Shown here: in pieces, positions 19,414-63,516 of the stretch
Layout: each line of letters opens with the position of its first letter
Position numbering within the stretch: the first letter of the stretch is position 1
Assembly (NCBI RefSeq): GCF_018977255.1
Contig: NW_024704768.1
Location: forward strand, 3,596,001 to 3,660,000
DNA: 64,000 bases
Source: Callorhinchus milii
Lineage: Eukaryota
Direction of reading: 5' to 3'
Notes under the pieces: model-generated
What the model saw: only the letters and a program-made list of their open reading frames with translations
What the model was told of the DNA's origin: nothing
The model's database searches: none
Translations under genes and position numbers: made by a program

Positions 19414-19919
19414 GCGGGATGCCAAGTTGCTCCCCGTTGAGCCACACCTCGGTGATGAGTGGAGGGAAGGAATGGGAGCACGAGTGCTTTATGCTACGGC
19501 TGTCTCTGTGCCCAACTGATCAATTTCAGATCCTCCCACTCACCTTCGAACCCCTTCATGCCCTGGCACCTTGCTTCCCCTCCGACCTGCTTATCCCCCA
19601 ACCCACTACCTCCGCTCGACCGGATCCTCCCTCCTACTTGCCCTCGTTTCCACTATCGGTGGCCGCACTTTCAGCCACTATGCCCTGAAGTTCTGGAACC
19701 CTCTCCCTCTATCTCTCTGCCTTACCCCCTCCTTCCCCGTCTTCAGGTCATGCCTGAAGACCTTCCTCTTCGACCGAGCGCTCTGGGACGCTACCCTGCG
19801 TGAAGGGCGCTTTGTAAACACAAGTTGTTGTTGTTGGTTTGTTTCAAGCAACCCACCTCAGGAATTGGCTCCAGACCAAGTTTGCCAGATGAGCCCATGA
19901 GCGGCGGTGAGGGCGGGAG

Positions 19920-20687
19920 ATGCCACAGGCGATGTCCTGGGAGAGGTCTCTGACCGCGACCCTGGTCTTCTGGCTGCTCGGTGTTGGGGGGACACTGGCC
20001 TGTCCGGATGGGTGCAGCTGTTCCGGAGAGAACGGGGAGCGTATCGTGCACTGCAGCCACCGGAACCTGAAGGAGATCCCGAAGGATATCCCTTGGGATA
20101 CGTTCGTCCTGGACCTGGACTCCAACCAGATCACCGAGGTGCCGGACGGGGCTTTTAAGAACCTGCACCGGCTAGTGGAGCTTTACCTGTCCAACAACCA
20201 GATAGAGAGGGTCTCGGCCACTGCATTCCGGGATGTGGCGGGGGGCCTGAAGCTCCTCGACCTTTCCAACAACAACATCAGGAGGCTGAGGCCGGAGGCG
20301 TTCAGCAGCATGAGAGCCAAGACCAGGCTGTACAGCAACCCCTGGCACTGCACCTGCGACTTGCAGGAGCTCATCAGTGTCCTCAACCCGGACCTGGAGA
20401 CGGTGAACGACATCATCTGCTCCACGGCCATCGAGGAAGAGTACGCAGGGAGGTCCTTCATCCAACTGCTAAACGCGGGGATCAATTTCTGCAACGTGCA
20501 GCAGAAAACCATGGACGTGGCTATGCTGGTCACCATGTTCTGCTGGTTCTCTCTGGTCATTTCCTACGTGGTTTACTACGTGCGACAGAACCAGGAAGAC
20601 GCCAGGCGCCACCTGGAGTACCTCAAGTCGCTGCCCAATCACCACATGATGCAGGGCGAGGCAGATACAGTCAGCACCATCCTGTGA
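19920..20687 (+). CDS. LRRC3-family leucine-rich-repeat type I membrane protein, single coding exon, 255 aa
   Basis: Signal peptide; LRRNT CPDGCSC...VHCSHRNLKEIPKDIP; 3 LRRs; LRRCT NPWHCTCDLQ; TM DVAMLVTMFCWFSLVISYVVYYV; family-diagnostic RQNQEDARRHLEYLKSLP. AATAAA at 21514-21519. Paralogue identity unresolved. Confidence 0.93.
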   Translation: MPQAMSWERSLTATLVFWLLGVGGTLACPDGCSCSGENGERIVHCSHRNLKEIPKDIPWDTFVLDLDSNQITEVPDGAFKNLHRLVELYLSNNQIERVSATAFRDVAGGLKLLDLSNNNIRRLRPEAFSSMRAKTRLYSNPWHCTCDLQELISVLNPDLETVNDIICSTAIEEEYAGRSFIQLLNAGINFCNVQQKTMDVAMLVTMFCWFSLVISYVVYYVRQNQEDARRHLEYLKSLPNHHMMQGEADTVSTIL

Positions 20688-40597: not shown

Positions 40598-42327
40598 CAT
40601 CACTTTGAGCTCAGTGTCCCCAAAGTATGGGCCTTAAATCTGCGGCCTTCTGACTTTGAGGGGAGAACCCGACCGACCGAGCCTCGATCAGAGAGCCACC
40701 CATTGTCATTGGAACAGCTCCCGTAACTTCTCCATAGCGCTCGGCGGGAATTACCATCCCATGTATTAAAAAGAATAGAGCCTTATTGTGTTGGGAGGTG
40801 GTCTGAAAGCTGTGTGTGTGTGTGTGTGTGTATGTGTGTAAGGGTGAGCACAACTGAGCATGTACAGAACAGGTCTGGGAGTCAGGTCTAATCTTATCTG
40901 GTTACCTCATGCTCGGGGATTGATCTGTGTTGCTTGGTAACTACTCCCTGCCTCCTTGTGCCTGTCCTCTCCCCTCCCCGCCAGGCTGAGAACCAGGAAG
41001 ATGGCTTTTCGCACCATTGCAGTGTGACGGCAGGAGTCTTTGGAAGCAAAATGTGCAATTAAAGAAAGCCATCGCTCTACTCTGCTCGTGTGTGAGTGCG
41101 TGTGTCTCTGTGTGTGAGTGTGTATGTGTGTCCTCAGTTCAATGTAAGCCTTTCGCCTCCTGTCTCTCACCAACTATTATTACTGCTTCTCGCGTGGTGA
41201 CTGCTAACACAAACAGTCACCGTGCTTGACAGTAATAGCAGTAATAATAATGATCCTTACGTTCATATCGCGCGCCGTATCATGTCGTCGAGACGTCTCT
41301 CAAAGCGCTTCGCAGAATATACTGTCAAGTGCAGTGACTGTGTACATTGCAGGGCGAAACGTGGCAGCCGATTGCGCGCAGCAGTGTCCCGCACACAGTG
41401 GTGGATTGAGCGACGCTATTAAGAAAGATAAAAGGACTTTCTCCCGGTTTCCTGGCCGACAATCCTCCCCCTCCCCCAATGCCCCCCCCCCCCCCCTCGC
41501 CCGCCACCACCATCGGATAAACCTCACGGTCCCAAAATGTCCGACTACGTTTGTTTACAAATACACCATAATAACATGTGCAGTATCCAACACAAATTAT
41601 CAGTGGATAAATGAGGGTGTTAGGCCCTGGGGGGGGGGGGGAGTGTGAGCAGGTGGGTGAGGGCGATGGGGGCAGAGGGAGAGGTGGGGGCACTTTTATG
41701 AGCTCTAGATTCAGTGCCCTGAGGGTTAAATGGTTTATCGCTTCCTTCCCCGCTGTGCTTCGTCCTACAGATGTGCTTTCTCTTTTGACTTTAATGAGTG
41801 CCGTGGTGGTGGGGGGGGGGGGGGCGGAGAGGCGGGGAGATGAAAGCTCGGGATGTGTAGCGGTGAGGGGCAGGGTGTATGTAGGTAGGCAGGATACAGT
41901 CCGTAATGGCCCCTTTCTCAGCCGCTCAGCAAACACTTTAATCCGACCGGATGAGATCATTCGGCGGTGGTGGGGGGTGGGGGGGGGGGAGATAAGGAAC
42001 GTAAAATCCACCTGCTTCAGTTCTCCTGCCTGCATTCCTGGAGTCTGACTCATTCCCTACCTGCTCTCTCGCTCACTCCGACACCTCCTACTCCTCCGCT
42101 CATTGGCTGTGCTGGTTGCACGAGGATATGCCGAGGCTGATTCCTTGCACTGCAGTCCCGTCACAGACTGCAGTCCTGGCTCTCGTAACCCGGCAGCACA
42201 GCCACCGTCCCCGGCGAGGGGAAAGGCTTGTACCGCGGGGTGCGGACGCCTGGCTCTGGCTGGCACCCTCCGAACTTAAACGTCCCGTTCGCAGTGAAGG
42301 TGAGAGGGCGAATCAGACTGTGATGTT

Positions 42328-42592
42328 NNNNNNNNNNNNNNNNNNNNNNNNNNNNNNNNNNNNNNNNNNNNNNNNNNNNNNNNNNNNNNNNNNNNNNNNN
42401 NNNNNNNNNNNNNNNNNNNNNNNNNNNNNNNNNNNNNNNNNNNNNNNNNNNNNNNNNNNNNNNNNNNNNNNNNNNNNNNNNNNNNNNNNNNNNNNNNNNN
42501 NNNNNNNNNNNNNNNNNNNNNNNNNNNNNNNNNNNNNNNNNNNNNNNNNNNNNNNNNNNNNNNNNNNNNNNNNNNNNNNNNNNNNNNNNNNN
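42328..42592. other. Assembly gap (N run)
   Basis: 265 N. Confidence 1.
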
Positions 42593-44442
42593 ACTGTGTG
42601 TGTGAGAGGGAGAGAGTCGCTGTATGAGTGTGAAGGAGAGAGACTGTGTGGGTGTGCGATGGAGAGACGCACTGTGTGTGGGTGCGTATGGGTATGTGTT
42701 TATTTGTGTGTGTGTATGTGAGGGAGACAGAGACAGCGAGAGAGGTGGGGGGAAAGTGTGTGCATGTGTGACTGTGTGGGGATGAGTATATGGTGAGTGA
42801 GGACAATGTGGTGGTGGAGAGTGGGGGGGGGGGGATGGGGTGAAGAGTGTGGGAGTGTGTATGAGGGTCTCTCTCTTTCTTGGTGACACATTAAGCCAGC
42901 CTGCCCGGTGTCTGAATTGGTTCCCCCTCCCCTCCTCCCCCCCCCCCCCCCCATCCCCAAGAGGTGTGCCTGGAGTGACCCTGAGTGTAACTGAAAGACA
43001 CATTCCTATTCACTTCCACTACTTCCCCCCCCCTCTCCCCCCCTTCCCATTTCAATCTCTCCCTTTGCAGGTCATGTTCCAAACAAACATGGTTTGGGAT
43101 AAACGTTTAACTTGGGGGAAATATGAGCCCCGCAATTTTACCCGGTCCTTTCGTTTCGAATTTAAGGTGGGGTGGAATTGTGAAAAAAAATTCTTCACTT
43201 CGCCTTTAATTTCTAAAACAATTTCCCGCTGTTTCTTTTCCTTCAGTCTCTGGACCCTTGGTGGATTATTCCCGACAGGATAAGTGACTGTGTATTTTGT
43301 AGACAAACGTAGCAGCCAATTTGAGCTGAGAAAGATCCTGTAAACTGCTTTGACGTGAAGGAATGGGTGATTTTTATCTGTGAAATTGGGACTGTCTCCC
43401 TTCTCTCTTTCTTCGTCCACCTGAACAGGCGCAGACGGCAGTGGAAGAGGTTCTCATTCCGACCCCCCCCCCAATCTTCCATGTGAACCACAACCTCTCC
43501 CATCACACTCGGGGAAGGAGTGTGTGTGTGTGTGTGTGTGTACATTGGTGCAAACAACTGTATCTGTAAACAACAGGGAGGGAAGGAGGGAATGAGTGAG
43601 TGAGATTGAATATGCAATTGAGTGAATGCGAGAGAGCGAGTGAGTCAGTGAGTGAGTAGCTCATTCATGGGTCCGTCACCTCGCCTCACGGCTGTGTGGG
43701 AACGATTGACAGAGTTGCAAAGCAGACTCAATGACTACCTGTGATGATAAGACAGTGAATGTGATGGTCAATGTGCTGCTGATGGGGGCTGTGGAAGATT
43801 CAGGACCATGAACAGCACCTGACATTCACCCACACCCAGCGTTTCATTCCTCACTCGCTCACTCACTTTCTCTCTCTCTCTATCTCTCCCTCTGTCTCTC
43901 TTTCTCGCTCACTTTCACACTATTGTCTCTCGCACTTTTGCTCTCACTTCGTGTCTTACCCTCTCGCCTCCGGGAATGTGGGTTCACATTTGATTCGCGC
44001 AGTGCCGTGCGGGGTGGCACTGCGTAGATGGAGGGGAGGGGGTAATAACCCCTTTAAAAAAAACATTGAGTCACTCAATCCACAACCTTATGGGACACTG
44101 CTGTCTGCAATTTGCTGCTGTGTTTCGACCACACACAAAAAAAAGCAGTCAATAATCCGCTTTACAATATATCCTGTGAATCGCTTTGAGACGTCTCAAC
44201 GGCGTGATAAGGCGCTATTTCAAATGCAAGGATTATTATTATTTTCATCATTAAGTTCTTTGCAGCAGTGAGGTGTTGTACGCTGTGTCTTTTAGACGGT
44301 TGATTCCCTGTGTTGATTTTTTTCAGGCAAGGTTCTGTGACGCTGGGAGGTGAGGAGAGAGAGAGAGATAGAGGGAGAGAGAGAGAGACCTGGACCAGGT
44401 GGTGTTGTGTTGGTGGGTTTGGTGGCTTCTCGGTGAGCAACA

Positions 44443-47400
44443 ATGGCGTGTGTGGAAGAACCAAGGAACCTGCCGGCTTCCCTGAGCAACTTCCAGTCCA
44501 CGCTGAAGGACCGGGAAGATAACTTCATAGCCTTGCGGAAGCTGGAATCCCCGGGGTCTCGCACCCCCGGAGGGACCCCCGAACAGGACCTGTCGCCCAC
44601 TCAGTGCGTGATGCAGAACGTCCTGTCTCCCGAGGGCGGGGGTCACAGCCCCAACGCCATGACGGATGTCAGCGAGGACGCCCGCGAGCACTTCTCCAAC
44701 AGCGTGCTCCAGCTGCACGAGAACGAGGGGGGCAATGTGGCGGGGGCTTCCGGGAGCGAGGGGGCCGGGGGGGAGTGCAGGCGGGACGCCAGGCGGCTGG
44801 ACCACGTGAGGATACAATGCACGCAGTCCGGAGGGGGCTTCCTGGATGGGCTGTTCGGCTGCCTGAAGCCCGTGTGGTACATCATCGGCAAGGCTTACTC
44901 CACCGAACACAAGCTCCATCACGAAGGTGAGCCCCTCACCCCCGGGCCTCCCATAATCCCCCCTCCCCCTCGCTTGGCCACAGACAGCGCTGTCCATACA
45001 GACCCGTCCGCCCCCTCCACTCTACTGGGCTCCAGCCTGCTCCATGTCCTGCCCCTTCTTAGCCCTGCCCCCCCCCCCCCCCCCCCTCCACCATCGACGG
45101 TCAGGCCTTCAGCCTCTCTGCCCTCATCCTTTGGAACTCCATCCCACATTCCCTTTGCCTTGCTCCCTCTGTTGCCTCTTTCAAGGCCCGTCTCAAGACC
45201 CTTCTCTTCGACCGGATCCTCCTTTGGTCACCCTCCTACCCCCACCCTCCCTGCCCTCCACCCCTCCTGATCCCAACACCCAGCTCGGGTGCAAATCCTT
45301 AACTATTCAGTGCCTTGGGACATGTCCCCCCAACATGAAAGGCACTGTGTAAATGTAATTTGTTATTGTTGTTGTTTCCGATCTGTGGTAACCCCTCGAG
45401 CTGCCTATTTCCTGATCTTAGGCAAGTTTCCTTACTCCGCACACACGCCTCTGTTTACCTAGCAGTAAGTAGGAACCCGCTTCTGAGTCGATTGGCTTTT
45501 CTGTTTTAAAAAAAATAATAATAGTGATTTGGTCACTCAATCCATGACTGTTTGTGGGACACTGCTGTGCACAATTGGCTGCCGAGTTTCGCCCACAAAA
45601 TGTACAGGCAATTTATTTTACGGTACATCAGTGAAGCACTTTGAAACGTGTCAACGACATAATAAAGGGCTTTATCAGGATTATTAATATTCCTATCAGT
45701 GCAGAGCGCCAAGTGTGTAAACGAGTGTGAACCCGCCCTGGGACGCTACCCTGTGTGAGGGGCGCTGTAAATGCAAGCTGTTGTTGTTTGTGTAGGCATC
45801 GTGCTCTGTTTGTCCCCAGAATCCTGGGAGGTGCCGTTTGAGGAGATCTCGGACCTGCAGTGGGTGGGCAGTGGGGCCCAGGGTGCTGTCTTCCTCGGCA
45901 AGTTTCACGGGGAGGAGGTGGCCGTCAAGAAAGTGCGGGATATGAAAGAGACTGACATCAAACACCTGCGGAAACTCAAACACCCGAACATCATCACCTT
46001 CAAGTAGGTACAGCCCCAACCGAAGCACGTTTTCCGCTCTTCCTCTCTCCCTCTCTCCTTGTTTCTCGTTCTCTTTTTCTCTCTTTTCCTTTTTCTCCAT
46101 CTCTGTCTCCCTGATTTTCGTTTTCACTTTCTTTCTCTCTCTCTCTCTCTCTCTCCCTCTCTCCCTCTTTCTCTCTACCCCTCTCTGTCTTTAAAGCGCT
46201 CTGCGATGCCGTCCGGCGTGGAGGGCGCTAAATAAATCCAAGTTGTTGTTGTTGTTGTCTTGCAAGTTTGCAGAGTCTGGGTTGAAATTAGTTGCCTGTC
46301 TCAGGGAGCGCCGACAGCTGACTTCCTGGATGTTTGTCTGCAAGCGCTCTGCGTGAGGGACGCTATATAAATGCATGTTGTTGTTGTTGTTGTTGCTTTT
46401 CCTGGTCATCCACTTCCCAGCTCCGCTCCCCTCTGGTGTGGGAGAGAGTGGCCTGACGGACACCTGCTCTGCAGTGTGTGTGGGCAGGAGCAGCCCTGGG
46501 GATAAGCAGGAGCCAAGGACCAGACAGTGATCAATACACAAGAAGTCAGACATCTCTCTGAGCACCGCTCACTCAAGTCGGACCCAAACCCTGAGACCCG
46601 CTGTGTATCTGCATGTTGTATAACCATCCTTAATAATAATAATAATACTAATCCTTGCATTTGATACAGCGCCTTAATTGCGTCTTAAACCGTTTCGCAG
46701 AATAGACTGTAAAGTGAATTGTATTTTGTGGGCGAAACGCGGCAGCCAATTGCACCGAGCGGCGTCCCCACAAACAGCCGTGGAGGATTGAGTGGCCAAT
46801 TTATTTTTTATTCTTTTAAAGCAGTGCGCCTTATCGCGCCTTAGGCGAGTCTCAAAGGATTCACTGTGAAATGTAGTGATTGTACGTTTCGTTAAAGGGG
46901 AACCCAGCAGCCAATTTACGTCTTAAATGGGGCAGCTCTGGGACGCTATATAAATGCGTATATAAACACAAGCTCAAGTTGTCGTCGTCGTCGTCGTGGC
47001 CCTCACGGTGGTACTCTTCCATTTCCGCAGGGGTGTGTGTACCCAGGCCCCGTGTTACTGTATCATTATGGAGTATTGCGCCCAAGGGCAGCTGTACGAG
47101 GTGCTGAGGGCCGGCAGGAAAGTCTCCCCTACGCTGCTAGTGGAGTGGTCCATGGGCATTGCCGGGGGCATGAACTATCTGCATCTCCACAAAATCATCC
47201 ACCGTGACCTGAAGTCACCAAAGTGAGTGCTGGGGTGGGGGGGTGGGAATGGGGGGGGAGGGGGAGGGCTCCATAATAATACTACTAATAATAATCCTTG
47301 CATTTGATATAACGCCTTATCACATCGTTGAGACGTCTCAAAGTGCTTCACAAGATACACTGTAGAATAGATTGACTGTGTATTTTGTGGGTGAATAATA

Positions 47401-50400
47401 CAGTTATTAATAATTAATAGTAAACAATCCACATTGACAATACACTATAATTAATGTTAATAAGGATCAATATTTAAATAATAATGGGTGGTAAAATTAA
47501 TAATCACTATAATAATAATACACATTAATAATTAATGATATCAGATAATTATCCTTGCATTTGATATGGAGCCTTATCACGTCATCGAGGTGTGTGGGGT
47601 GGGGGTGGGGAGAGGAGTGTGCGGAGGGGGTGAGGGGAAGGGGTGATGGTAAGGAGTGAGGTGGGGGTGAAGGCAGGGGATGTGAGGAGAGGGGGTGAGG
47701 GGAGGGGTAGGGAGGGACGGTGTGAGAAGAGGGTGTGAGGAGAGTGTGTGTGGGTGAAGGTCAGGATGACATGTCTCCACTCTCCCCGCTGCAGTATGCT
47801 CATCACCTATGATGATCTGGTGAAAATCTCTGACTTCGGGACGTCCAAGGAACTGAACGACAAAAGCACCAAAATGTCCTTTGCCGGCACCGTGGCCTGG
47901 ATGGCCCCTGAGGTCATTCGCAATGAGCCTGTGTCTGAGAAAGTGGATATATGGTGAGGGGCCAATAAACAGGCACATAGCCAGCGTGTGTGTGTGTGTG
48001 TTATCTCACTCTCTGTCCCTGTGTGTGTGTCTGTCTCTTTCTCTCTGTCCCTGTGTGTCTTTGTGTATATGTCTCTCTCTCTGTCCCAGTGTGTGTGTGT
48101 GTGTGTGTCTTTCCGCCTATCATTGTGGTTTGTGTGTGCCTTTCTGTCTGTCTCTGTGTGTACATATGTGTGTCTTTCCATCTGTGTGTACGTGTGTGGG
48201 CGGGTTATCTCTCTCACCCTCCCTCTGCGTCTCTATGTCTTTCATTGCCTCTGACTCTTTCTGTGACCCTCTCTCCCTCTCCCTCCCTCCCTCTCTCGTT
48301 CTGCGTCTGCCGTTCTCACTGAGCAGGAGGCTGTAGATTAGAGATTGTCACAGCAAAGAGCAGCTCTCTGTGATTAAACTAATTATTCTGGGTCTGTTCG
48401 AAAGGGTTAAACAGAAAAATGGTGATTAGTGGGAGTGGGGGGCGCAGGTGGTGGGAGGAGTCCTGTGTTTGGTCACACAATCTGTTCAGAGAGATTTAAA
48501 CCACCTCCCGCAGAGCGAGGGCTTTAATCTGCTTCTCTCGCCTGTGCAGCAACGCCCTCCCTGGCAGCCCCCTCCCCGGCAGATCCTCTCCCCCTCCTTG
48601 GGGGCACCAACGCTGTCACCCCCCACCCCTCCCTGTCCCCTGTGCCCCAAGAGGGAGGATCGCCTGTTTCAGGGACCGTTCCAACAATCACCTCACAGAA
48701 CAGTGACATATCACCGTCAACCAGGCTCCAGTTCACACCCAACACTCAGTGTGTGTGTGTGTGTGTGTGTGGGGGGGGGGTGTCTGTGCATGTGGGCTTC
48801 TCTCTAGGTGTGCATTTGTTTGTCTCTATAAATGTGTGTATGTGTGTTTGTCTCTGTGTATGTGTCTCTCTGTTTTTGTGGGTTTCTCTATCTCCCTTTG
48901 TGTGTGTGTGTGTGTATTTGTATGCGTGTCTCTCTCTTTCGGTGTGTGTTTATCTCTCTCACTGTGTTTCTCTCTCGCTCTTTCTGTGTGTATTTTCTCT
49001 CTCTCTTTCAGTGTGTGTGTGTCTCTCTCTCTCTGTACATGTAGGTATCTGTGTGTGCGTGTGTGTGTGAGACTCTCTTTCCTCTGCAATTTTATACGTC
49101 CAATGAAATGAAATGCAGAGTCGCTCCCATCTACTGCCACCCAGAGGAGACATTGTCCCACGCACACAAAAGCCCTGAAAATCAGTCACTTACACTTGAC
49201 AATAACAATAATAAACCTTGTATTTGATATAGCGCCTTATCACGTCTTCGAGACGTCTCAAAGCGCTTCACAAGATATACTGTAATATACTGATTTTCTC
49301 TCTCCTCTCTCTCTCAGGTCCTTTGGTGTGGTGCTGTGGGAGCTGTTGACGGGAGAAATTCCCTACAAGGACGTTGACTCGTCAGCCATTATCTGGGGCG
49401 TCGGGAGCAACAGCCTCCACCTCCCTGTGCCCTCCGGTTGTCCGGACGGATTCAAGCTCCTTCTCAAGCAGTGCTGGTGGGCTTTTGTTCCCTCCCCACT
49501 TTGACGTGATGTGTGTGTGTGTGTGTGTGTGTGTGTCGGCTCCACTGACTCCCCATTCCCCCAGAGGATCGAGTTCAGAATCCTTGTCCTCGCTTTCAAA
49601 GCCCTCCACGGCCTTCCTGCCTCTGTGACCTGCTAACCTGATACCAACTTTTCCGTTCCTTCCGCTCAGTCAGCTCCGGCCTCCTGCACGTGTCCCTTGG
49701 CACCTCCGCTCCACCATCGGCAGCCGTGCTTTCAGCCACTACACCACCGAGACTGTCCCTCCCTGCCTCTACCCCTCCACCTGCCCCTCCTCTCGTTGCC
49801 TGGCTTCAGATCGAACCAGGAGACTTTTCTCTTCGCCCTCTCCTATGGTCACCTCCCATCTCCTGCTCCGCCACTGATAAGCAGTCTGAGACACTACCCC
49901 ATGTGAAGAGCGTTGTGTATTGCAAAGGCTGTGGGGAGGGAGAGTGTCATCGGGGAATTGCAGGCAACAGCCTAGAGGTAAAGTTTCCTTATTATTTATC
50001 AGGAACGGGAAACCCAGGAACCGTCCATCTTTCCGGCAGATCCTCCTCCACCTGGACATCGCGGCGGCTGACGTGCTGGGCACTCCCCAGGAGACTTACT
50101 TCCAGTCTCAGGTAACTGAGGGGCGGTGGAGGGGGGGTAATAATCCCTCCCCCCAAATAAATAAATAAATAAAATAATCATAATTTAGTCACTCAACCCA
50201 TGGCTGTTTGTGGGGACGATGCTGTGTGCAATCGGCTGCCGCGTTTCGCCCACGAAACGTACAGTGAATTCACTTTGCAGTGTATCCCGCGAAGCGCAGT
50301 GAGACGTCTCGAAGACGCGATGAGGCGCTGTGTCAAACGCGAAGTTAATTATTATTATTACTAAACCCCTCTCATCTGGGTGAGCAGGTGGAGTGGCGGG

Positions 50401-53400
50401 AGGAGGTGAAGCAACATTTCGAGAAGATTAAGAGTGAGGGGACCTGCATTCACCGCCTGGACGAGGAACTGGTCAGACGACGGCGAGAGGAACTCAGGTG
50501 AGAACCTGCCGGGTGGGGGAGCGTATCTGGGGGATGAATGGACGGGGAGGGGGGAAATCTCCGGCCAGTATTCACCTCTCTCTCTCTTTCTCACTGGCTC
50601 GGGCACACAGGCACGCGCTGGATATCAGGGAACATTACGAGCGGAAACTGGAGCGAGCCAATAACCTGTACATGGAACTAAACTCGGTGATGCTACAGCT
50701 GGAGCTGAAGGAGAAGGAGCTGATCAGGTGAGGCTGACTGGATTGGGAGGGGGGGACAGGCTGGAGGGCGAATACGGCAGGGGAGAAGGGTCGAAAGGAT
50801 TATTATTATTATTATAACTGCATCCCGCATTCCCTTCACCTCGCTCCCTCCCTTGGTCCTTCAAGGCACGAATCAAGACCCTTCTCTTCTACCGTGCCTT
50901 TGGCCATTCTCCTATCTCCAACCCCTACCGCCCTCCATCTCTCCTGATCTGAACCTCCCCTCCCCGACCCCCAGCTCAGGTCCAAACCCCTGATTGTCTA
51001 GCGCCTTGGGACGTCCTCCCGGCGTGAAAGGCGCTGTTAAATGTAACTGTAAACGCCGGCTGACCAGAATAAACAAGATGCTGACTGTGCTCCGACAGGC
51101 GGGAGCAAGCCCTGGACACCAGCTATCCTGGAATCTTCCGGCTACACCCGGTGCGGCCCCTGGTACACGCCAACTCCGTGGAGAAGCTGCTGAAGAAAAG
51201 GAACACGTCACACAAACCGCCCGCTCACAGCAAGAGGTCAGCAATAGATAGATAAGGCTTTGTATCGAACGCGAGGATTGATATTCTTAATGTTAGGATC
51301 ACGGTCCCCTTGATTGTCCCGATAACCTGCCCGGAAATCCTCCAGATAAATTCAGACTTGGAGTCCTGTAGCGTATCGGTTAGCCTTGTAAGCGGGAGAA
51401 TCCGGGTTCCCGGACAGGGCGAAACCTTAGGGGAGATACCTTACTCCACACACACACACACACGCCTCTGTTTACCCAGCAGTCACTTTACAGTGAACCC
51501 TGTGAAGCGCTTTCAGACGTCCCAACGACGTGATGAGGCGCTGTGTCAAATGCAAGGTTCCCGCTGTCAGAGTAAAGCCCAGAGCTCGGTGCCTGGCACG
51601 ACGATTCCCCTTTGTTACTTTAATCTAATCGCTCACAATCCTTCTCCCTTATCCCTGCCCGTCTCTCCAGGCCTGACCTGCTGAGGTCCGAGGTCATCCT
51701 GCCGAAGCTAGACTCCGCCGTCACCCAGGTGACGATCCCGACCTGTCAAAAATCCTCGGCTTCTCCCGGCAAATCCCGGCACCGGGCGAAATCCCGGTAC
51801 AGGAAGGTGACCAACAAGGGGAGCCACGGTGACCTGATGGGAGTGCCGAAGGTGGTGGTGGGGGCTGGCATGGTGGGTGCGGTCAGGGACTCTCTCTCCC
51901 CGCCGCTGCACAGCCCGGCCTGTAAAGACCTGGCCACTCCTTGCTCCCAGAACCTCCGCTACTTCGGGCCCACGGCAGCCCTCCGCAGCCTCCCCCACGA
52001 CCTGCTCCAGAAAAAGCTCTCCTCCTCCAGCCCGGACCTGATCAGCAGCACCATGGAGGCCGACAGCCGCAAGAACAACAACCGGGGAGCAGGAGGTGAC
52101 GCTAACTGTAACCAGCAACCGCCTGGCCCGACTAGCCAGGACCCGCCCTGCATCGCGCCAGGCTCCCCTCACCTCTCCAGCAGCCCCGACTCGCCCGTGG
52201 ACAGGGGCAGGCTGCTGGGACGCTCGCACGGCTCACTGGCCCCGGTACAGAGACTGTACGAGGCCGGACAGGCTGAGCACGCGGCCGGGCAGAGCCATGG
52301 GGGGCAGGGGGCTGAGCGCAAGGCCTTGGACTGTGCCTCACAGGCCTGCACCGCGCCAGGCCTGCCTGGCCAACCGGCAACACTGGGCAAACAGGTAAAT
52401 AACAGCCGCGGTAGCTGTGCCGACCGCACGAAGATCACGACGACACTTACGTTTAAGTGGTGCCCTTCGAGTCCGGAGAGCATCACACAGCGCTGGGGTG
52501 GTTGGGAGTGGGGGGAGCGGAGGGGTGGATAGGTTTCTGGGATTAAGAGTGTGGGTGGGGGTGGGGTGGGGGTGTTGGAGGTGTCCAGCATTGGGGTGTC
52601 CACGGGGAAGAGGGAGGAAAGGACTCAGTTCCCCCCCCACGAAATGCACAGCCACTACTACCCTTACGGTACATTCTGCGAAGCGCTTTGAGACGTCTCG
52701 AAGACGTGATAAGGCGCTGTGTGGGGAGGGGTGAGGGTGGCGGTGGGGGAGGTGGGAGCTGGGAAGAGTCCAGGCGCATGGAGGTGTCGGGAGGTTTATG
52801 TTTTCAGTAAAAGCTGATTTCTTCTCCGCAGAAAAGGGGAATTTCGTCAGAGGAGGAAGAGGGTGAGGTGGACAGTGAGGCCGAGTTTCCACGGAGACTG
52901 AGGTGAGAGGAGCGAGCGGGAAATAAGAGCGTTTAACGGAAAAACGAGTTCCCAGCCTTTGAGGCGTGGCACACAGCAAGGGAGTTCGCCCGACCCGCGC
53001 CCCTTGTCAGACGCCCCGGCTGACCATAAAATAATCTCGTTACAGGCGGAACCTGTGCTTCAGCACGTGTCAGTCCTTCTCCACCTTCAGCTCAGAGAAT
53101 TTCTCGGTGTCGGACGGGGACGAGGGGAACACGAGCGACATGTCACACAGCTGCACCCCGGACGTGCTGAGCACCAACACCGACGAGAAGCTGGACGACC
53201 GCTCGGACGACGTGCTGTCGCAGAGCTCGGAGATCCCGGTCGACCTGCTCCTGCAGTCGGATGGGCTGTCGGAGAAGGAGGCAGCTCTGCAGCAGGTGAA
53301 GAACCAGGTGTCCTCGGGCAGGCTGGGCTCTCAGTATCCAGGCTGCGAGGTGGGTACAGACACCGGGCAAAGCTCCCGCAGGCGATTCCATATCCCCCAC

Positions 53401-53895
53401 ACCCCCACCCCGCGCTTTATACAGAGAGAGACCACCTTTATAACCTCCCCGTTTAATAACACGGTCACTGCACCTTACAATATATTCTGGGGCTGTTCGC
53501 GGGATGTCACCGTGTGCGATTCGGCTGATCTGTGCGCGCGTGTGCATGTTATAACATATAAATATTGCGGTCACTCACTCCACGACTGCTTGTGGGGATC
53601 CTGCTGTGCGGGCGCGCGTGCAATTGGCTGTAAAACGCTTTTGAGACGTCTCGATGACACGAGGTGCGCTATTAAATGCAAGGGTTATCAGGATTAATAT
53701 CTCGGTTTGTTTGAAGATTCGAGACCCCCCCCCACCACCGGCAATTGTCTTCCTGCATGTAAACCGCCTGATCCTTCCTTTCTCCCCCCGCAGAGCTTAT
53801 CGCACTGTGAAGACTCTGACTGCGACATCCCAGAGATGGAACGCTCCAGTACTCCCAACACAAGTCACAAGCCTCGGAGTTCATGCTCCTGGTAA
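44443..53895 (+). CDS. MAP3K12: Dual leucine zipper kinase DLK, 13 coding exons, ~950 aa
   Basis: Exons 44443-44926, 45820-46003, 47031-47222, 47795-47953, 49318-49476, 50003-50111, 50388-50497, 50611-50727, 51099-51236, 51671-52394, 52832-52902, 53046-53349, 53794-53895 in frame (2853 nt). DLK-type MAC... N-terminus, [39 protein letters not shown], leucine zippers, [12 protein letters not shown]; tail-to-tail with PCBP2 as in human. Confidence 0.95.
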
Positions 53896-55323
53896 CTGTG
53901 ACTCCTGGAGCCGGGCACCAGGCTGGACACACAGATGTACAATTCCTGTAAATACATGATTTGAAACTCTCCTCTCGCCCCCCCACTCCCCACCCACCAC
54001 CCCCTTTGTGATACTGAGTGCAATAAAACAACCCTCACATGCTTCCAGTTCACCAACAACTGAACCCGAACCAAGGACACAACCTCCTTTGCCATGAAAT
54101 TGCCTCAGTCTTGACTCTGAACTATTAACTACCCGCGTAAGACCGTGGAGAGCCCGGGCACACCCGAGGGCGAAGAGGATTCCACTTAACCCCATGTGGG
54201 GCCTGACCGTGACACGGGCTGGTTTTACAGACAACATACGCTGGGTTAAGCGGCGTGTGCACACGCGTGTGTTAAGAGTGCGAGCGAACGAACAAACGCC
54301 TGTGATCAAACATGGAACTGACAGTAGTCGGTGACAGGACTCCTGCTCTCACACCACAGTGAGACACAGCTGCTCTACATTAAACATTATTATTTCAGAC
54401 AAACCGACTGGGATCGTGTGGCTTTCTAACCAGCGGAACCTGTGAACTGCCTGTCCCCCCCCCACCACCCCCCCGAGCAGAGGTTGCTACAGCATAGCAC
54501 CCAGGAATATACAGAGAGGAGGGGAGCGAGGCGAACAGGGTACAAAGTGAGCAGTGAAGGTTAGTGCAGCCAGGGTTAGGAAACCGATCGGTGGAAACTT
54601 ATCCAAGTGTTGCTCTCCCTGCAACTTGCCTGAGGAAGAGGAGTACAACTTCCACTTGAATAGCACCCTCCGTCCAGGGTCGCGTCTCGAGCGCTCGACA
54701 CTAAAGTAGTAAAAGTAGTAACCTTTAGTAAAGCTTGGACTCTGCCACTCTCCTCACTGCCACCAACCACAAGCTCAAAGTGCAGTGCACAGGCAAGGGA
54801 GGAGTACAAAACCGCACCGTCCTCCCACACAAGAAGAAGATACCATTTATAGAGCGCCTTTCACGTCAGGAGGACGTCCCAAGGCGCTGTAACCGACCAA
54901 GGCTCCAGGTTCACCAAAGAACCCACTTCCTTCATCCTGGTCTTCATAATCTCCCCGCGCCCCCCACCTCCCATTTCTTCACCCATTCCCCTACTTCTAC
55001 CCTCCAATCCTTTTAACTCCAGTTCACCACTCATTATCCCACCCACCAGCAATGGCCGAGTCTTCAGCCACTACATTGTGAGACCAAAAAAAAAAACCAC
55101 TTGTATGGGTGAACAGCTTCAGTCCACGACCTTACTCTCTCCTCCCTTTCCTCAAACACTTCCCGAGCGTTGAGGCCTTCGGCACATTCAACAGGAGACC
55201 AGCTGTGGCGCAAGTCACTTACCTGGGCAGTTGGTGTGTGGTGGCTGCAGCCGTGGAGACGGCCTGGTTTGATCCTGAATGATTAATTAATAATTAAAAA
55301 AGCAGGAACACAAAAGAGGCAAA

Positions 55324-55373
55324 AATAAAGACTCCGGTGGCGAAAACTCCAGTTCTGATGTTTTGTTTTTATT
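55324..55373. terminator. Convergent poly(A) signals: MAP3K12 distal (+) and PCBP2 distal (-)
   Basis: AATAAA (+) 55324-55329; AATAAA (-) 55373-55368. A proximal MAP3K12 AATAAA lies at 54022-54027. Confidence 0.55.
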
Positions 55374-56736
55374 AGAAAAAAAATTGACATTACAGAGTTT
55401 GTCATCACTGCTGTATCTCTGTGCCACACTCAGCTTACATGTTTCTCTATTTTTTTTTAAACACTGGATGCAAATCAGAACAGAAAAAAAAGCCCAAAAA
55501 AGTTGTACAATAAAATAGAGAGAGAAAGAGATAAGATAGATATAGGGCGTAGGGGAGAGAGGGGGAGGGGAAGAGAGCGAGAGAGGTGGGGAATGGATTT
55601 GGATGGGGCAGAGACGGGGGGGGGAAGGATGGGACGGTGGGGTTGTGGGGAAGGGGGGACAGGGAGGAACTGGGTGTTTAAAAGAAAAAAAAATACAAAT
55701 TTAGGTGGGCGATACAAAGGAATACGAGACGTAATCAATCAAACATCCAGAATAAAATAATTTGCTTTTTTTTTTAAACTTTACTGGGGTGGGGGGTGGT
55801 GGGGAGGGTGGGGGGGGGGGAAGAGGCGGCGACGGAGGATAGAAAAAATGTACAAACTGGAACAGTTGTGTGAAGTGCTCATGAAATACACAGTAGAATC
55901 ATGGGGAAAGAGCTGGTGGGGGTGATGGGTACATTTTATTGGTTCCCCATTCCAGAGGCTTCAGAGGATAACCTAGAATACAGAGAATCGAGGAAAAGAG
56001 CAGTGTCTTAACACGTTCTGTAATACAGCAAAGCAGCCATGCTAAACGTGCGCTCCACTAAACACAGTCAATACACTGTTAGGCACAGGCTACAGACACG
56101 ATCCACAGGCTGAACGGCAGAGAGGGGGCGTTATCAGACGGAGCTGAGCGCGCTCCGCAGGGTTTGGCGGCACTGGTGGACGGACTCGGGTGAGGGTGTG
56201 CGGGGCCCTGACCTCCTCTACCGCGCTCCCGAGCCTGGCTGAACAGGCTCGAGGGGCTGAATGGCCTCCTGTTCCTATCTCCCCCCCCCCCTCCCCCCCC
56301 ACCTGCAGTGTTACCGGCTGAGTGCAGAGGATGCCCTGTGCTGGGTGTATAGACTGGCTCAGTGTGGGGAGAGCTTTGGAGCCGGGTGTAGAATAATCCT
56401 TGCATTTGATATAGCGCCTTATCATGCCTTCCGGCTGCCTCAACACAAGGACAGCCCTACCCTGGGTGTATAAACTGGCTCAGTGGTGGGAGAGCAGCCC
56501 TGACTGTGTATAGACTGTATGTACTCTGTATACACTCTGGATGTATAGCACATGCAGGGCCCTGCCTGGGTATAGAGACCGGTTCAGTGTGGTGGATGTC
56601 GTATGGTGTATGCACTACAGCTGAAGGGGAAACAGCACCGTCCACACAGAAAGCCGACCTAACGAGCACGAGTGCAGCCGAAGCCCCTTCAGATAAACCT
56701 CCTCTACTGTCGTTCACAGCAAGAAATCTCCAGCTC

Positions 56737-57889: not shown

Positions 57890-63516
<5,627 letters not shown>

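Follow-up and report, generated by a model that had tools for sequence, protein, structure and literature searches.

The window, that is, the whole 64,000-nt stretch of Callorhinchus milii DNA that was analysed, encodes MAP3K12/DLK in 13 coding exons (Table 1). The 950-aa product is letter for letter RefSeq XP_042200069.1 (P0573; MAP3K12, Callorhinchus milii). All 12 introns are of the GT-AG type, the frame is open across all exons and none of the coding exons is touched by a masked stretch. The organisation of the protein is that of the DLK/LZK subfamily of mixed-lineage kinases, a Pfam kinase domain (aa 174-409) being followed by long helices at 305-396 of P0001; helices after the DLK kinase carry the label leucine zipper in PMC10886912. 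The first-pass annotation of this DNA had read the hexapeptide SDGLSE in exon 12 and a protein end, in exon 13, of ...CEDSDCD...SSCSW*. Both are borne out by the exon table, the RefSeq identity and the spliced contigs.

Table 1. Features of the MAP3K12/DLK region, in positions of the window
Feature	Position	Strand	Basis or remark
Separase (peptidase C50), prefoldin, MYG1, LRR gene, aladin	5378-28440		Upstream neighbours by Pfam
258-codon ORF carrying LRRNT and LRR domains	19911-20684	+	Between MYG1 and aladin
MAP3K12/DLK coding span	44443..53895	+	GT-AG exons, open frame, RefSeq identity
MAP3K12 exons 1-5	44443-44926, 45820-46003, 47031-47222, 47795-47953, 49318-49476	+	
MAP3K12 exons 6-9	50003-50111, 50388-50497, 50611-50727, 51099-51236	+	
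MAP3K12 exons 10-13	51671-52394, 52832-52902, 53046-53349, 53794-53895	+	
Kinase domain aa 174-409, exons 2-6	45855..50051	+	Pfam PF00069/PF07714; coordinates from exon table
Exons 7-9, long post-kinase helices (leucine zippers)	50388..51236	+	AlphaFold helices 305-328, 331-396 of P0001
Exon 11, acidic motif	52832..52902	+	Kept in DLK of all groups, mammals and birds included, and in LZK
Exon 12, SDGLSE-helix module	53046..53349	+	Entire exon present in spliced contigs
Hexapeptide SDGLSE, aa 887-892	53257..53274	+	S887/S891 match worm S874/S878
Predicted helix aa 892-905	53272..53313	+	AlphaFold2 helix 757-770 of P0001
SGRL helix end, resembling LZK LGKL	53314..53325	+	Among sampled DLKs, cartilaginous fishes only
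EDSDCD acidic motif	53809..53826	+	Common to human DLK; not LZK-specific
Terminal Trp and stop	53890..53895	+	Tail ends ...SSCSW
KH-domain gene	59386-63516	-	Downstream neighbour by Pfam, convergent

Transcript evidence and the identity of the gene

The GT-AG joint between exons 11 and 12 (52900>53044) is found in contigs of 4/4 runs, and the joint from the entire exon 12 to exon 13 (53347>53792), likewise GT-AG, in 3/4 runs from two studies. These runs were guessed to be RNA, none being recorded as such, though splicing is shown by the GT-AG joints. The motif of exon 12 is retained in spliced contigs, exons 11-12-13 being joined, and no motif-skipping joint is listed in the contigs of the four runs, which show the presence of forms rather than the absence of rare ones. 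Nor is a short inhibitory isoform without the tail found among the contig pieces, with which absence cannot be shown. In run X1 a contig of depth 3 covers the start of intron 12 (53349-53533) and is likely to be unspliced RNA or DNA; the reading frame of this intron is open up to 53694. A short interspersed repeat is present in most introns of 41000-55500 and dominates read depth.

In a tree of 48 proteins, built on 344 kinase and zipper columns, the query lies inside the DLK group (95/94) as sister to Heterodontus MAP3K12. A grouping of the query with LZK against DLK plus invertebrates is rejected (AU p=0.0035; p=0.0086 with Heterodontus added). A clade test without outgroups gave p=0.068 but was ill-posed, as all it did was to make the query basal within DLK. 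The kinase tree proposed by the first-pass annotation as a check of orthology thus places the query with DLK and rejects a MAP3K13 placement, and its assignment of the gene to DLK is supported by the tree, the RefSeq name and the neighbouring genes. Separase, prefoldin, MYG1 and aladin upstream are presumably a match to the region of human MAP3K12. Relative to aladin, the pair formed by DLK and the KH-domain gene looks inverted when set against what we take to be the human gene order. The KH-domain gene is probably PCBP2. In human, PCBP2 and TARBP2 lie on either side of MAP3K12 (PMC10886912); no TARBP2-type domain was found in 440 of 441 filtered window segments scanned with Pfam.

A separate LZK paralogue is present on contig C76 of the same genome, falls outside the DLK group in the tree and reads SDGLSD-KECAVRRVKTQISLGKL. 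In both Callorhinchus genes 31 codons separate the start of the motif from a phase-0 donor. This equal position in the exon indicates that the motif is homologous in DLK and LZK, and its presence in the matching place in orthologues and paralogue alike shows that it is not a chance occurrence. Codon identity between the two genes is 9/14 at the exon end and 151/277 over the kinase and zipper baseline, with only 1/5 SDGLS codons identical. The difference at 4/5 of these codons argues against recent conversion.

Barring an assembly error, it is scarcely credible that the gene is really LZK (MAP3K13), or that its tail was acquired from LZK through gene conversion. The Callorhinchus tail is indeed the most LZK-like among DLKs, with SGRL, a terminal W and a spacer of 42 aa against 43 aa, and on the strength of the first two features the LZK-like C-terminus of the first-pass annotation stands. 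It does not extend to EDSDCD, which is present in human DLK (P0520). Two partial shark proteins, P0002 (Heptranchias) and P0003 (Cetorhinus), are 86-88% identical to exon 12 and are named MAP3K13-like, which might favour LZK identity; judged by their DLK-type tails they are probably misnamed DLKs. Against these two readings stand both AU tests, the separate LZK in the same genome, the RefSeq name MAP3K12 and a convergent KH-domain gene downstream, as in human MAP3K12-PCBP2. The synonymous divergence within the motif counts against them too, as does the E at position 6 with its flanks, which are common to all other DLKs.

The hexapeptide and helix in the DLK family

Human MAP3K12 shares with the Callorhinchus protein an identical activation loop, the LHLPVPS stretch and N-terminal and tail motifs that include STNTDE and EDSDCD. 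It differs in having a proline-rich stretch in place of SDGLSE and the helix, and in lacking the terminal W. The absence of the hexapeptide that characterises mammalian-type DLK is therefore not found in Callorhinchus, where SDGLSE is present and spliced in. Vertebrate MAP3K13/LZK has the hexapeptide and helix at the equal exon position, a GKL-like end and a terminal W, but reads SDGLSD-KECAVRRVKTQ, has a different N-terminus and is without STNTDE. C. elegans DLK-1L shares both serines and DGL with Callorhinchus DLK, and nematode relatives have a matching helix pattern; Callorhinchus has E for D at position 6 and no short inhibitory isoform seen in contigs. Caenorhabditis angaria and Ancylostoma served as stand-ins for C. 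elegans DLK-1 in the nematode comparison. X. tropicalis DLK (P0500) has SDGLSE and the helix, as does Callorhinchus.

All carriers continue after the hexapeptide with a pattern of the xE..[VLIM]..[VMFI]K/R type, so the unit is the hexapeptide plus about 13 residues. The element that had been proposed as conserved, the hexapeptide, is thus upheld and enlarged to the hexapeptide with a predicted helix. AlphaFold2 gives the last 395 residues a single helix, at 757-770 of P0001, its block having a pLDDT of 62-72 with an alignment that was chosen for carriers. A mammal/bird DLK fold had a mean pLDDT of 34 with the kinase unfolded, and is therefore no control for the helix. No solved structure resembling the module was found, the seven matches being ribosomal L24 at E 1.5-1.7, and exon 12 matched no Pfam family.

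A module HMM run on 69 DLK-family proteins (50% representatives, many of which are fragments) gave 13 scores of at least 25 bits, 11 of these from seeds, and 5 further weak matches of 12-20 bits. SDGLSD with the helix pattern is found in Lytechinus, Octopus, Caenorhabditis angaria and Ancylostoma. Apostichopus carries SDGLSE with the helix pattern, so that E at position 6 is not confined to vertebrates. The lamprey carries the module, a tapeworm has the variant ADSLSE, and the scorpion and damselfly DLK-family proteins are without it. Since many invertebrate members of the family are without the module, it is labile. Its presence in lamprey, sea urchin, octopus and nematodes as well suggests that it is ancestral and repeatedly lost. 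This agrees with the proposal of the first-pass annotation that both paralogues ancestrally had the module, which is present in DLK, LZK, lamprey and several invertebrate DLK-family proteins. From the sequences compared, it is very likely that an ancestral module was kept in both paralogues and later lost in DLK lineages.

The first protein search was queried with exon 12 and is biased; its best 120 of 238 matches comprised 86 SDGLSD and 34 SDGLSE. Because of this bias, two more searches were made with regions of newt DLK that are without the motif (best 120 of 832 and best 120 of 294 matches), with cluster members added. Counted by species, exact SDGLSE is present in 4/4 cartilaginous fish (a biased figure, from the motif-holding query only), 6/6 non-teleost ray-fins, 2/2 of coelacanth and lungfish, 20/21 amphibians (the exception being Microcaecilia, SNGLSE), 12/16 turtles and 20/20 squamates. 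Among the turtles Carettochelys and Macrochelys read ADGLSE, and Emydura and Pelodiscus have lost the motif. The count is 0/7 in birds, 0/2 in monotremes, 0/5 in marsupials and 0/35 in placentals. Further cluster members add Pangshura SDGLSE, Chelydra ADGLSE and 0/14 additional marsupial models. A species was scored positive when the motif was present in one chosen model, the alternative models P0121, P0163 and P0227 being without it. Six models that stop short of the site (P0235, P0237, P0267, P0301, P0495, P0532) were excluded, and the crow site, which lies outside the scanned 220 residues, was read from the tail sequence. The sample does not include crocodilians, palaeognath and galliform birds, or tuatara and zebrafish DLK; zebrafish and crocodilian DLK are absent from the best 120 matches of each search.

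The earlier statement that mammalian MAP3K12 is without the hexapeptide is therefore confirmed, with exact SDGLSE in 0/42 mammals. Retention is no peculiarity of Callorhinchus DLK, since vertebrate DLKs other than those of mammals and birds carry the motif as a rule. The later loss in DLK that the first-pass annotation proposed is supported, with the correction that losses are several (mammals, birds, two turtles).

Teleosts have two DLK types that differ by N-terminus (e.g. P0161, P0565, Chelmon), the duplication being left unresolved by the tree of 48 proteins. Counted by proteins rather than species, the full motif and helix pattern is present in 57/73 of type A. Type B has SDGLSE in 54/63 and the full helix pattern in 0/63. 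Type A also ends in W, and the two types form a natural split of the element. The primer printed in 10.1101/2021.07.03.450951 gives the zebrafish dlk cloned there the end GQGPQN, not the W of type A, so that this gene may be of the eroded teleost type; this would explain why DLK is called domain-less in that paper.

In hand-picked sets, a terminal W is present in 15/15 LZK, 19/19 shark and ray-fin DLK and 0/24 lobe-fin and tetrapod DLK. On these protein ends, the terminal W is a loss in lobe-fin DLK separate from that of the hexapeptide and before it. A terminal Trp is common to LZK and several invertebrates (ETxVW-like ends). This suggests that the terminal Trp is a second conserved motif at the DLK/LZK end.

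Losses of the module and its possible function

Birds are nested within reptiles in the accepted species tree, so that on this tree the module was lost independently in mammals, birds, Emydura and Pelodiscus. The lesions also differ, with spacers of 21-23 aa in birds, 31-38 in mammals and 37 in most turtles. A tetrapod MAP3K12 gene tree made without the module nevertheless groups birds with mammals at 98-99, and Sauropsida is rejected (AU p=0.001 on all 791 columns, 0.043 on gap-free columns). If real, this grouping would need one loss rather than two, in a gene lineage that the two have in common through hidden paralogy in amniotes. Such a history is very unlikely. Without the columns in which G/A/R/P residues are gained or lost the grouping vanishes and Sauropsida has a support of 70, with birds plus mammals still unrejected (p=0.32), and in kinase-only tetrapod trees the two arrangements are indistinguishable (p=0.61, 0.59). 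The clean sites number only 7 against 3, alignment columns 637-655 form a gap block in birds, turtles and squamates alike, and a second DLK was not seen in any tetrapod match. The differing spacer lengths and the species tree also count against a single loss.

Birds (0.337-0.352) and mammals (0.319-0.374) have the largest share of G/A/R/P in the part of the protein that precedes the module; among turtles, the two species without the module have the top values (0.297 and 0.307, against 0.278-0.289 in other turtles). The grouping of birds with mammals is likely, from these protein compositions, to be compositional convergence. Loss of the module, as read from the same sequences, is one that tracks a GC-type shift in composition, and this is a neutral rival to any regeneration story. 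The history would then be unchanged, with the module in vertebrate DLK being no calcium-linked switch but a docking or stability element that is partly redundant with LZK and decayed wherever the locus went through rapid, GC-driven change. This is possible, if rather doubtful, and in that case the loss says little about regeneration. Besides the composition of birds, mammals and the two turtles, it is favoured by teleost type B, which keeps the hexapeptide and never the full helix, as expected from relaxation after duplication, and by mammalian DLK, which can be activated without calcium (PMC4896747). However, neighbouring short tail motifs persist in birds and mammals, and frog DLK, which evolves fast and has the longest of all branches in the tetrapod tree, retains the module unchanged, which argues for purifying selection. 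Together, the surviving tail motifs and the long-branch frogs indicate that the loss is selective.

The preferred reading, to which we give a probability of about 0.7, is that the tail of Callorhinchus DLK keeps an ancestral SDGLS[D/E] and helix module that likely acts as a phospho-switch docking on the kinase/zipper part. A single ancestral gene would have had the module, and both copies would have retained it after the vertebrate duplication. LZK would then have kept it and DLK lost it separately in each lineage, through erosion at near-constant length in mammals and with a shortening of about 15 residues in birds; two turtles would have lost the module, and one teleost copy the helix only. 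S887 and S891 lie where the predicted helix begins. When phosphorylated they would promote the active dimer, a phosphatase of the PP2C type would undo the phosphorylation, and the phospho-regulated helix would dock on the kinase/zipper part.

This proposal follows the worm protein. DLK-1L is regulated via S874 and S878, being an active homodimer when phosphorylated and binding the short inhibitory DLK-1S when dephosphorylated (PMC4014440, PMC4806438), and PPM-2 acts on S874 (PMC4014440). Serines of the worm-type switch are present at positions 1 and 5 (S887, S891) in Callorhinchus; exact SDGLSD is absent, position 6 being E. By analogy with the worm, the balance leans slightly towards a phospho-switch function of the module, and a calcium dependence may be suggested only tentatively.

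Complex prediction of the kinase and zipper with a 61-aa tail piece scored 0.35, against 0.02 for the best of three controls, with at least 48% contact agreement between runs and a partner pLDDT of at least 48. The pass mark admits 51/78 solved and 2/108 mismatched pairs (39/65 and 2/126 in eukaryotes). Passes at 0.60 or under comprise 5/78 solved pairs and all 4 passing mismatches of 180; because few solved pairs and all passing mismatches score in this range, the predicted docking of the tail on the kinase/zipper part is a weak indication. The tail of worm DLK-1L is said to contact the kinase part, as Yan and Jin reportedly found in 2012.

Implications for DLK and regeneration

LZK is described as having the motif and mammalian or Drosophila DLK as lacking it (PMC10886912, PMC4806438, PMC4896747, PMC4014440), and 10.1101/2021.07.03.450951 calls it absent from DLK without qualification. 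Its absence has served as an argument that worm DLK-1 has its functional counterpart in LZK rather than in DLK (PMC10886912, PMC4806438, PMC4014440, 10.1101/2021.07.03.450951). The hexapeptide of DLK/LZK is further treated in 10.1101/484683 and PMC4892358, and a supplemental table of the former marks NCBI proteins bearing SDGLSD, according to its legend. No report of the motif in non-mammalian vertebrate DLK was found in the literature text searched; the chance of a prior notice in print is about one in four. It is true of mammals and birds only that DLK is without the hexapeptide.

In X. laevis, regrowth of the optic nerve requires Dlk, with cell death unaffected, unlike in the mouse (PMC10162689); neither 'hexapeptide' nor 'calcium' occurs in that paper. 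Xenopus, axolotl, newt, Anolis and medaka, which are models of regeneration, carry DLK with the module, so that it can be edited in place where DLK is needed for optic-nerve regrowth, and the difference between frog and mouse in the effect on cell death makes this a direct test. The element itself is redefined as hexapeptide plus helix, the two being separated by natural variants (teleost copy B, birds, marsupials).

A link between loss of the module and regeneration is speculative, the independent losses being few and two of them in turtles. It is improbable that mammals and birds, both warm-blooded, each lost an injury-sensing phospho-switch, helping DLK of central neurons to turn from a signal for regrowth, as in the frog, to a mixed death signal, as in the mouse; if this were true, restoring the module to mouse DLK would shift the balance between death and regrowth. 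The Callorhinchus gene is an annotated DLK in its ancestral state as regards a regulatory module that has been too little described and that mammals and birds are without.
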